NCBI GenBank assembly: GCA_000004985.1
Contig: GG739191.1
Reading direction: 5' to 3' (one strand)
Length of the DNA: 4,200 nt
Origin: Naegleria gruberi
Taxonomy: Eukaryota
The notes under the pieces are model-generated. The model was not told where the DNA came from, ran no database searches, and saw only the letters and a program-made list of their open reading frames with translations. Below are positions 1,123 to 4,200 of this stretch, piece by piece (positions within the stretch are counted from its first letter, which is position 1; each line of letters starts with the position of its first letter). A program made the position numbers and the translations under genes.

Positions 1123-2541
1123 NNNNNNNNNNNNNNNNNNNNNNNNNNNNNNNNNNNNNNNNNNNNNNNNNNNNNNNNNNNNNNNNNNNNNNNNNNNNNN
1201 NNNNNNNNNNNNNNNNNNNNNNNNNNNNNNNNNNNNNNNNNNNNNNNNNNNNNNNNNNNNNNNNNNNNNNNNNNNNNNNNNNNNNNNNNNNNNNNNNNNN
1301 NNNNNNNNNNNNNNNNNNNNNNNNNNNNNNNNNNNNNNNNNNNNNNNNNNNNNNNNNNNNNNNNNNNNNNNNNNNNNNNNNNNNNNNNNNNNNNNNNNNN
1401 NNNNNNNNNNNNNNNNNNNNNNNNNNNNNNNNNNNNNNNNNNNNNNNNNNNNNNNNNNNNNNNNNNNNNNNNNNNNNNNNNNNNNNNNNNNNNNNNNNNN
1501 NNNNNNNNNNNNNNNNNNNNNNNNNNNNNNNNNNNNNNNNNNNNNNNNNNNNNNNNNNNNNNNNNNNNNNNNNNNNNNNNNNNNNNNNNNNNNNNNNNNN
1601 NNNNNNNNNNNNNNNNNNNNNNNNNNNNNNNNNNNNNNNNNNNNNNNNNNNNNNNNNNNNNNNNNNNNNNNNNNNNNNNNNNNNNNNNNNNNNNNNNNNN
1701 NNNNNNNNNNNNNNNNNNNNNNNNNNNNNNNNNNNNNNNNNNNNNNNNNNNNNNNNNNNNNNNNNNNNNNNNNNNNNNNNNNNNNNNNNNNNNNNNNNNN
1801 NNNNNNNNNNNNNNNNNNNNNNNNNNNNNNNNNNNNNNNNNNNNNNNNNNNNNNNNNNNNNNNNNNNNNNNNNNNNNNNNNNNNNNNNNNNNNNNNNNNN
1901 NNNNNNNNNNNNNNNNNNNNNNNNNNNNNNNNNNNNNNNNNNNNNNNNNNNNNNNNNNNNNNNNNNNNNNNNNNNNNNNNNNNNNNNNNNNNNNNNNNNN
2001 NNNNNNNNNNNNNNNNNNNNNNNNNNNNNNNNNNNNNNNNNNNNNNNNNNNNNNNNNNNNNNNNNNNNNNNNNNNNNNNNNNNNNNNNNNNNNNNNNNNN
2101 NNNNNNNNNNNNNNNNNNNNNNNNNNNNNNNNNNNNNNNNNNNNNNNNNNNNNNNNNNNNNNNNNNNNNNNNNNNNNNNNNNNNNNNNNNNNNNNNNNNN
2201 NNNNNNNNNNNNNNNNNNNNNNNNNNNNNNNNNNNNNNNNNNNNNNNNNNNNNNNNNNNNNNNNNNNNNNNNNNNNNNNNNNNNNNNNNNNNNNNNNNNN
2301 NNNNNNNNNNNNNNNNNNNNNNNNNNNNNNNNNNNNNNNNNNNNNNNNNNNNNNNNNNNNNNNNNNNNNNNNNNNNNNNNNNNNNNNNNNNNNNNNNNNN
2401 NNNNNNNNNNNNNNNNNNNNNNNNNNNNNNNNNNNNNNNNNNNNNNNNNNNNNNNNNNNNNNNNNNNNNNNNNNNNNNNNNNNNNNNNNNNNNNNNNNNN
2501 NNNNNNNNNNNNNNNNNNNNNNNNNNNNNNNNNNNNNNNNN
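1123..2541. other. Assembly gap of 1419 consecutive N; a further single ambiguous base at 2580
   Basis: Read directly from the sequence. The plus-strand ORF 1059..2552 in the track is almost entirely X and is an artifact of translating N. Confidence 0.99.
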
Positions 2542-2698: not shown

Positions 2699-3161
2699 AT
2701 AATAAATTATTACTATTTAAAATATGATAAGAAGGTATTGTAATTAATAATCTATTTAAATTATATTCATCATTATTATTATAATTTTTATCATGTTTAT
2801 AAATAACACCACTATTAATTACATTTCTATTCCAAATTAAATTACCATTTATAGTATCTATTTTAATAAATGGAGCATATCTATGTGATTTTAAATATTC
2901 TTTACAATATAATTCTTTTGTAACAATTTCACTTGTTAAATATTCTTCAATTTCATTTAATTCATTTTCTAAATCTTGTAAATTAATTTTATTTTCAAAT
3001 TCTTTATTTTCATTAATTTGATTATTTTTAATTAATTTATTTAATCTATTTTGTAAATTATTTATATTATTATTATTATTATTAGAATGATTGTTATTAC
3101 TATTAATATTTAAATTATTATTATTATTAGAATGATTATTATTTAAATTATTATTATTAGA
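2697..3161 (-). CDS. Downstream (C-terminal) coding segment of the second minus-strand gene. It is in a different frame from the upstream ORF: 154 sense codons from 3161 down to 2700, with stop TAA = revcomp of 2697-2699.
   Basis: I translated the minus frame whose codon low coordinates are multiples of 3. It reads SNNNNLNNNHSNNNNNLNINSNNNHSNNNNNNINNLQNRLNKLIKNNQINENKEFENKINLQDLENELNEIEEYLTSEIVTKELYCKEYLKSHRYAPFIKIDTINGNLIWNRNVINSGVIYKHDKNYNNNDEYNLNRLLITIPSYHILNSNNLL*. It has no ATG, so it is absent from the ORF track. Its composition is protein-like and K/E/L-rich. The frame is bounded upstream by an in-frame TAA (revcomp of 3162-3164). Confidence 0.6.
   Translation of the reverse strand, partial: SNNNNLNNNHSNNNNNLNINSNNNHSNNNNNNINNLQNRLNKLIKNNQINENKEFENKINLQDLENELNEIEEYLTSEIVTKELYCKEYLKSHRYAPFIKIDTINGNLIWNRNVINSGVIYKHDKNYNNNDEYNLNRLLITIPSYHILNSNNLL
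3066..3161. repeat. Coding minisatellite. The unit is (att)5 agaatgatt ... atttaa, present as a 45-nt copy, a 33-nt copy and a partial third copy. Two 27-nt cores match at 26/27 and are spaced 48 nt apart.
   Basis: 3066-3092 is attattattattattagaatgattgtt. 3114-3140 is attattattattattagaatgattatt. The unit lengths differ by 12 nt, which preserves the frame. On the minus strand this encodes repeated NNNHSNNNNNL. Confidence 0.7.
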
Positions 3162-4200
3162 TTACAATAATATTTAATTTTTAAAGAAATGTTTAATAAT
3201 TTTTGTTTATAATTTAATAAAATATTTTGAATATAAAAATCATGATGTGAAGTTTTAATAATTAAATTAATTAAATTAGAAATTAAATCTACTAAATAAG
3301 TAATTTCATTTAAATGAGTTAAAATATTTATAAATTTAATATTTTCTAAATATTGTTTTTTAAAAATTAAATAAAATTGATTTGATTGTTTAATATTTTT
3401 CAAATTATTTTTAAAATTTAATCTCTTTTCTTGTAAATTTAAATTTAAATCATTTACAAATTTAGTAATAAAATGTTCATTTAATTCCTTTTTAATTTTT
3501 AATTGTAAATTAGATTTATTATAATTATTAAATAAAATTAAATATTCTTGAAATATTTCATTCCAATTTAATTCAATTAAAATATTTTTTAAATTATTAT
3601 TAATTTCATTTATATTACTTTCTAAAATAGGTAATGTATTTAATAAAATAAATAATAATTCCATTTGTTTTTCAATTTGATTATTTTTTAAATTTCTAAA
3701 ATGTAAAATTTGAAAATATTTAACATTACTAAAAATAAAATTAAAAATTAATAAAATTTCTATAAATGATTTATCTAAACCTATATTTGTAGTATTATCT
3801 ATTAATATACATGATGTATTATAATGATATTCATATAATTTTGTAATATTTTCAATACATTTATTTAATATTTCATAATATTTAATAAAATTACCATTTT
3901 TAACATTTTCATTACCAAATATATATTTCATCCAAATCATTGAAGGTAAAATTAATTTATTTTCCATAAATTTTTTAATTGAATTATAATATTCAATTGA
4001 TATAAATGGTGATGTTAATTCTTGATTTTTTATATTATTTAAATTATTTAAATTATTTAATTGTTGATTATTATTATTATTATTAATATTATTATTATTA
4101 TTATTTAATTGTTGATGGTGATGATGATTTATTTGATTATTATTATTTACATTATTTACATGTTCATGTTGTTGTGATGATGATTGTTGTAATTGTTGTA
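3143..4200 (-). CDS. Upstream part of the second minus-strand gene. Its 5' end lies beyond the right window edge. It has an N/Q/H-rich low-complexity N-terminal region followed by an I/L/N/K-rich region. The stop is at 3143-3145 in this frame.
   Basis: The ORF track gives 3143..3967(-), 274 aa (MENKLILPSMIWMKYIFGNENV...YYCNLIIII*). I translated by hand upstream of the Met at 3965-3967 and the frame stays open to 4200. It reads (N to C) QQLQQSSSQQHEHVNNVNNNNQINHHHHQQLNNNNNNNINNNNNNQQLNNLNNLNNIKNQELTSPFISIEYYNSIKKFMENK... The annotated Met is therefore internal. No family is recognised. Confidence 0.75.
   Translation of the reverse strand, partial: QQLQQSSSQQHEHVNNVNNNNQINHHHHQQLNNNNNNINNNNNNQQLNNLNNLNNIKNQELTSPFISIEYYNSIKKFMENKLILPSMIWMKYIFGNENVKNGNFIKYYEILNKCIENITKLYEYHYNTSCILIDNTTNIGLDKSFIEILLIFNFIFSNVKYFQILHFRNLKNNQIEKQMELLFILLNTLPILESNINEINNNLKNILIELNWNEIFQEYLILFNNYNKSNLQLKIKKELNEHFITKFVNDLNLNLQEKRLNFKNNLKNIKQSNQFYLIFKKQYLENIKFINILTHLNEITYLVDLISNLINLIIKTSHHDFYIQNILLNYKQKLLNISLKIKYYCNLIIII
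4034..4105. repeat. (attatttaa)x3 tandem repeat at 4034-4060, then imperfect (att)6 aat (att)6 at 4067-4105. A 17-bp direct repeat attatttaattgttgat occurs at 4052-4068 and again at 4100-4116.
   Basis: Read directly from the sequence. On the minus strand this encodes LNN LNN LNN and poly-Asn within the N-terminal low-complexity region of the gene. Confidence 0.7.

Follow-up and report, generated by a model that had tools for sequence, protein, structure and literature searches.

A single frame break divides a Naegleria gruberi orthologue of FDP41_002377 and is most probably an artefact of the draft assembly

Scaffold GG739191.1 of Naegleria gruberi strain NEG-M (assembly GCA_000004985.1) was analyzed over its entire length of 4200 nucleotides (nt), and this whole stretch is referred to below as the window; all coordinates are those of the window. 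It has a GC content of 13.6%. A gap of 1419 N separates its two contigs, of 1122 and 1659 nt, and there is a further uncalled base at position 2580. The larger contig carries two long open reading frames (ORFs), both read on the minus strand, which we refer to as frame A and frame B. The initial annotation had described them as overlapping by 16 nt, and translation of the minus strand in all frames confirmed its coordinates, the sole stretch open in both frames being 3146-3161, which reads tctaataataataatt. When aligned to a protein of Naegleria fowleri, frames A and B proved to be collinear parts of one N. gruberi gene that is interrupted by a single frame break, and the two halves of this gene are otherwise intact.

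An exhaustive phmmer search of 1.84 billion representatives, in which the non-repetitive part of frame B served as the query, returned a single relative, the N. fowleri hypothetical protein FDP41_002377 (E 3.8e-14), which has 743 amino acids (aa) and is deposited as XP_044563270.1, KAF0978557.1 and UniRef100_A0A6A5BNC9, with CAG4717543.1 identical to it. By BLASTP, residues 71-345 of frame A matched residues 136-509 of this protein (2e-39, 30% identity), and residues 61-154 of frame B matched residues 639-743, which form its C-terminus (2e-24, 44% identity). The N. fowleri gene is one uninterrupted, intronless ORF of 2232 nt (3001-5232 of the N. fowleri sequence L001) that translates exactly to the 743 aa, and tblastn searches against L001 placed both frames of the window on the same N. 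fowleri reading frame (subject frame 1). A single orthologue thus spans both segments contiguously, so that frames A and B are the two halves of one gene. Furthermore, the downstream neighbours of the gene in the two species, encoded on the same strand as the gene itself, are orthologues of each other (40% identity, 7e-46). Judged by the collinear matches and this conserved neighbourhood, the N. gruberi gene is the orthologue of FDP41_002377. The proposal of the initial annotation, that one gene had been broken by a shift equivalent to one missing base, is therefore supported by orthology as well as synteny. Its suggestion to look for one orthologue covering both segments was also borne out, since the intronless N. 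fowleri protein does so, in order and in one frame; the dictyostelid proteomes that it had named for this comparison were the wrong choice, the organism being Naegleria gruberi.

Besides being collinear and followed by the same gene in the same orientation, the genes of the two species share a Cys-Glu-Ser-Asn context at the junction and a Ser/Asn-rich linker, which in N. gruberi lies in frame B and in N. fowleri occupies the same place. On the other hand, the N. fowleri gene has 32% GC, a linker of 129 aa and no frame break, whereas the N. gruberi copy has 12% GC and a linker of 60 aa. Neither the fused protein nor frame A alone gave a hit in a word-indexed protein search, which missed the N. 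fowleri orthologue too, probably because Asn-rich low-complexity words swamped the candidate list.

The coding signal passes from one frame to the other close to the overlap. By codon log-likelihood scores trained on the flanking ORFs, the change of frame occurs at about 3190-3160; frame A scored positive down to about 3190, and frame B from 3160 on, including all of 3160-2976. Given the local base frequencies (A 0.49, T 0.39), the probability of a stop is 0.117 per codon, or about one stop per 8.5 codons, and the chance that all 154 codons of frame B stay open is about 5e-9; when 3161..2700 was shuffled, none of the 200,000 shuffles stayed open. Frame B contains neither a Met residue nor an ATG, and it therefore cannot be initiated independently at a canonical start. 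These results bear on the reading in which frame A is complete at 3143 and frame B is unrelated to it, either as a separate gene or as a chance open frame. Nothing but the stop codon taken at face value speaks for that reading, to which we give next to no chance of being correct; it was ruled out by the collinear matches of both frames to one N. fowleri protein, together with the missing ATG and the very small probability that such a frame is open by chance.

Where the missing base would lie was addressed by enumerating single-base insertions. Inserting one base at any junction from 3164/3163 to 3144/3143 restored one ORF in 79 of the 84 combinations of base and position. The initial annotation was right in stating that one base suffices, while the range it gave, 3146-3161, was slightly too narrow, and the fused product, for which it had claimed more than 500 aa, has 500 aa within the window, its N-terminus lying beyond the scaffold end. 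In a global alignment, KIKYYC-x-SN of the window fell on KIRLYC-E-SN of N. fowleri, and the DNA at the junction reads TAT TGT GAA AGT AAT in N. fowleri versus TAT TGT -AA TCT AAT in the window. The sequence TCTAATAATAAT is present in three copies, at 3161, 3131 and 3086, all of them in the frame-B register (S-N-N-N); copies 2 and 3 are preceded by AAT CAT, and copy 1 is preceded by TGT AA. Since these units keep the frame-B register from 3161, the shift would be placed just upstream of them, in TGT-AA/TCT. The missing base thus most likely falls between 3164/3163 and 3162/3161, and the alignment points most of all to a G between 3164 and 3163, which would give TGT-GAA-TCT and hence C-E-S, as does TGT GAA AGT in N. 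fowleri. With this G added, the junction reads YYC-E-SNN in the window and LYC-E-SNI in N. fowleri. The features of the locus are collected in Table 1.

Table 1. Features of the frame-broken gene and its surroundings on scaffold GG739191.1, in window coordinates
Feature	Position	Strand	Remarks
Frame A	4198..3146	minus	351 codons without a stop up to the scaffold end; covers the N-terminal and central parts of the gene
TAA closing frame B upstream	3164-3162	minus	Overlaps TGT-AAT of frame A; an insertion after 3164 destroys this TAA
Permissive interval for one added base	3144..3164	minus	All insertions enumerated
Frame-A stop TAA	3145-3143	minus	Premature if the deposited sequence is taken at face value
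Frame B	3161..2700	minus	154 codons, no Met; Asn/Ser-rich linker and conserved C-terminal region
In-phase (AAT)n tract	3057..3161	minus	Period 3, 34 copies, 0% indels
Candidate intron, 191 nt	2975..3165	minus	Donor GTAATC, acceptor TTTACAAG; join ...KIKYY-Y-LENELNEIEE; unlikely
TAA, true stop of the gene	2699-2697	minus	Aligned with the C-terminus of the N. fowleri protein
Scaffolding gap, 1419 N	1123..2541		With the single N at 2580, a sign of draft quality
Downstream coiled-coil gene, C-terminal 314 codons	181..1122	minus	Orthologue of the gene downstream of FDP41_002377; synteny anchor

The encoded protein is so far known only from Naegleria. Pfam gave no family for frame A, frame B, FDP41_002377 or the downstream neighbour, and no relative was found in a profile search of the PDB sequences. 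An AlphaFold2 model of FDP41_002377, built from a 3-row alignment, was unusable, with a mean predicted local distance difference test score (pLDDT) of 37 and a predicted template modelling score (pTM) of 0.26. The protein is predicted to be largely helical, and its conserved C-terminal block follows the pattern EYLKS-x-RYAP...NGN..WN..VINSGV...IPSY..LN. With about 12% GC, the coding sequence at 2700-4198 on the minus strand lies below the neighbour on the scaffold (23%), the N. fowleri orthologue (32%) and the genome (35%), and this extreme AT-richness may be a reason for the poor assembly of the locus.

A spliceosomal intron would provide one way to join the two frames. The GT at 3165/3164 could be spliced to the AG at 2976/2975, removing 191 nt, or, less plausibly, to the AG at 2859/2858, removing 308 nt. 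The initial annotation had held that no phase-compatible intron exists, which a full enumeration showed to be false: both options use the donor it had considered, conform to GT-AG, have lengths congruent to 2 mod 3 and give a stop-free join, ...KIKYY-Y-LENELNEIEEYL.... The AG that it had located at 3012/3011, for an intron of 155 nt, is really at 3003/3002 and gives 164 nt, and the TAA that it had noted at the resulting junction is indeed there. An enumeration of GC-AG introns gave no solution, and AT-AC introns were set aside because in such A/T-rich DNA they yield hundreds of meaningless pairs. Splicing has the advantage that it needs no error in the deposited sequence. The two candidates resemble short Naegleria GT-AG introns in having GT...AG with compatible phase at 3165..2975 and 3165..2858, and differ from them in that their interior looks coding in frame B and that the orthologue has protein sequence there and no intron.

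It is this coding evidence, and not the phase, that disfavours the candidate introns. The N. fowleri orthologue is intronless and has its Ser/Asn-rich linker at the exact position of the intron, with a frame-B linker of like character in N. gruberi. None of the 62 frame-B codons within the 191-nt candidate is a stop (P about 4e-4 at the local composition), codon scores favour this frame throughout, and the phase of the AAT repeat is kept inside the candidate with 0% indels. Splicing would moreover take out the entire linker and put another residue in place of a Cys conserved between the species (C345 of frame A, C509 of FDP41_002377); with the 308-nt intron, 39 residues of the significantly conserved C-terminal block would be lost as well. 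U2-type donors usually carry a G at position +5, which GTAATC lacks; this general consensus may not be that of Naegleria, for which we found no usable splice-site consensus in the literature. Beyond what composition would give, the frame-B translation of the region shows no significant similarity to the N. fowleri linker, which leaves some room for an intron: the score of the whole linker, reached by 192 of 500 shuffles, is purely compositional, and the match between LQNRLNKLIKNN and LQFRWNKLMKLN inside the candidate intron was equalled by 368 or 54 of 2000 shuffles, depending on the target. The linker motif is thus not convincingly conserved, and it was therefore not used as evidence against splicing. 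Taken together, we consider an intron improbable, the 191-nt candidate being unlikely and the 308-nt one less plausible still.

Alternatively, a full-length protein could be made by a -1 ribosomal frameshift or by transcriptional slippage within 3164-3144. The required shift is indeed -1, the common direction for programmed frameshifting, and the frame-A stop at the end of the overlap could pause ribosomes. However, the permissive interval holds no X XXY YYZ heptamer in frame A and, for slippage, no run of four or more A or T. The nearest heptamer in frame A, T TTA AAA at 3185-3179 on the minus strand, precedes the overlap by 15 nt. It is unproductive, since a frame-B TAA follows at once at 3176-3174 and another at 3164-3162, and in DNA so rich in A/T it has most likely arisen by chance. 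The minimum free energy of the 126 nt downstream (3165-3040) is -3.7 kcal/mol (z +1.33), weaker than that of 186 of 200 shuffles, and scans for Rfam families and tRNAs found nothing. The locus is thus like canonical -1 programmed frameshifting sites in its direction and its short frame overlap, and unlike them in having neither a slippery heptamer in the interval nor a stable structure downstream and in not being conserved in the N. fowleri orthologue, which is a plain single ORF. We regard recoding of this kind as hardly credible, and programmed frameshifting is effectively excluded. The initial annotation had listed it as a less likely alternative.

The deposited sequence may also be correct in another sense, in that the NEG-M genome itself could carry a 1-nt deletion, either as a recent frameshift allele or as a very young pseudogene. 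The truncated protein would then end in ...KIKYYCNLIIII, without the conserved C-terminal region. This is how the deposited sequence reads, and the break does not lie in a long homopolymer. In addition, a small orphan scaffold can represent a divergent allele left unmerged in the assembly, and heterozygosity has been mentioned for N. gruberi, the strain being reported as heterozygous (PMC9928731). Against a genuine deletion stands the state of the gene beyond the break. Pseudogenes would be expected to show several lesions, loss of the ORF and loss of conservation downstream, whereas there is one disabling lesion only, and the 154 downstream codons are still open in DNA of 12% GC and 44% identical to N. 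fowleri. Any real frameshift must therefore be very recent. The exhaustive search, furthermore, gave no intact second copy or allele among the annotated N. gruberi proteins, so that the scaffold cannot be presented as the 'bad' allele of a pair. A genuine deletion in the genome of the strain is thus conceivable but, in our judgement, rather unlikely.

We consider a sequencing or assembly error to be the probable, though by no means certain, explanation of the break. On this explanation, the coding sequence would run straight across 3165-3143 with no intron, and the deposited scaffold would be one base short, the loss of a G from TGT-GAA-TCT having left TGT-AA-TCT; with the G after TGT restored, the sequence would read TGTGAATCT. 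Owing to the missing base, a TAA would end frame A after 6 more codons, and the 154 codons that remain would appear in the -1 frame. The cause would be a base-calling or consensus error in a piece of Sanger draft with very low coverage and extreme AT-richness, and not biology.

What points to such an artefact is the context of the break. The scaffold is small, gapped and extremely rich in A/T, its consensus has kept an uncalled base, and the break is the sole lesion in a reading frame that is intact and conserved in all other respects. The N. gruberi assembly is Sanger-based, with 40.9 Mb, 35% GC and 1,977 scaffolds (PMC9928731). From their lengths of 1122 and 1659 nt, the two contigs of the scaffold appear to be only one to a few Sanger reads long. 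The initial annotation had placed the break near a contig end. It is not really close to one, with 621 nt between it and the gap edge and 1037 nt on its other side, in a contig of only 1659 nt; these distances suggest that reads begun at the contig ends would have come to their low-quality tails at the break. Single-base indel artefacts that split or truncate gene models are documented for draft assemblies, for example that of the rhesus macaque (PMC3426473). The N. gruberi locus resembles such artefacts in showing one break between intact, conserved halves of an ORF, in its low-coverage setting of short contigs, a gap and an uncalled base, and in having no annotated full-length product; it differs in that artefacts are defined by read-level data, whereas the N. 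gruberi case is known from the consensus sequence.

Several points nonetheless weigh against an error. Homopolymer runs are the classic context of indel errors, and the break is outside any such run of 4 or more. A phase-compatible GT-AG intron of 191 nt exists, and the homology to N. fowleri of the motif inside it is not significant beyond composition (p 0.03-0.2). The placement of the junction depends on one orthologue, and the junction adjoins low-complexity sequence, where the alignment is soft. Finally, the call of an error is drawn from context, and the exhaustive search and the exact look-ups gave no second N. gruberi copy. There is also a very small chance that the deposit is correct and that the full-length protein is nevertheless made from it, either by a non-canonical -1 recoding in a nearly pure A/T setting that has no slippery heptamer or structure, or through a 191-nt intron that was newly 'intronised' from the in-frame Asn-repeat linker and that N. 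fowleri does not have, in a gene whose coding sequence has fallen to 12% GC. Explanations beyond those considered here are given a small share of our confidence.

The scaffold also provides information on the surroundings of the gene. The minus-strand ORF at 181-804 is 100% identical to XP_002668232.1, the 208-aa product of NAEGRDRAFT_54888. This model starts at an internal ATG, and the open frame extends upstream of it to the gap edge at 1122; in N. fowleri, the ORF of the neighbour reaches the contig end at 686 aa, and the extended frame aligned to its residues 429-686. Since the frame continues to the gap and aligns to these residues, NAEGRDRAFT_54888 represents a C-terminal fragment, and roughly 430 N-terminal codons of the neighbour would have been lost in the gap of 1419 N. 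An assignment of the neighbour as an NDC80-like kinetochore protein had no Pfam support and was dropped.

Between the stop of the frame-broken gene and the gap, the segment 2542-2696 is relatively GC-rich (29%). Within it, 2542-2640 includes a GGCGCC site as well as the single uncalled base (2580), and has no open frame; it could be intergenic or promoter DNA, or low-quality sequence from the end of a read. In N. fowleri the intergenic spacer is only 54 nt. At the other end of the window, positions 1-108 of the plus strand, with about 29% GC, form a frame that is already open at the scaffold edge and closes with a triple stop at 109-117, after ...YALEVWGFEQIVKKETRSNSIKTNVAASTLLDYSHY. A convergent gene extending beyond the scaffold may have its 3′ end here. 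Upstream, the N. fowleri orthologue is preceded by a gene for a small GTPase of the Arf/Ras family (L001 2043-2648) and by a WD40-repeat gene (L001 1-116); the N. gruberi equivalent of this region is beyond the scaffold end, and the N-terminus and start codon of the gene are outside the window.

A homologue of the neighbour with 530-600 aa and 36% identity was found at 624-2426 of a 5.4-kb contig (MLSBCLC_10327138, here L002) of JGI metagenome 3300002220, presumably from an uncultured heterolobosean-like eukaryote. In the ORF listing of L002, no obvious homologue of the frameshifted gene was seen upstream of this neighbour homologue. The gene pair thus appears, from that listing, not to be syntenic on L002, which therefore offered no third junction for comparison.

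As to the annotation of the gene, exact look-ups of the frame-A products (351 aa and 274 aa) and of the frame-B product in the gene-position index and in the protein collection found nothing, and the protein collections searched contained no N. gruberi protein with the C-terminal part encoded by frame B; a frame-A model with different boundaries may possibly be present in the collections. The lack of a full-length annotation is explained by the frame break together with the scaffold end and the gap. Most probably, the single-base break that hides the full-length gene from annotation is an ordinary artefact of a draft assembly.

These findings have no bearing on any long-standing biological question, and their consequences are mainly practical, namely a correction to the annotation of N. 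gruberi. A comparison of Naegleria genomes lists 599 genes that N. fowleri and N. lovaniensis have and N. gruberi lacks (PMC9928731), and absence lists of this kind may count loci like the present one as losses when they are really casualties of the assembly. If, on the other hand, the frameshift were real, it would represent a strain-level null or truncation allele of a Naegleria-specific protein.

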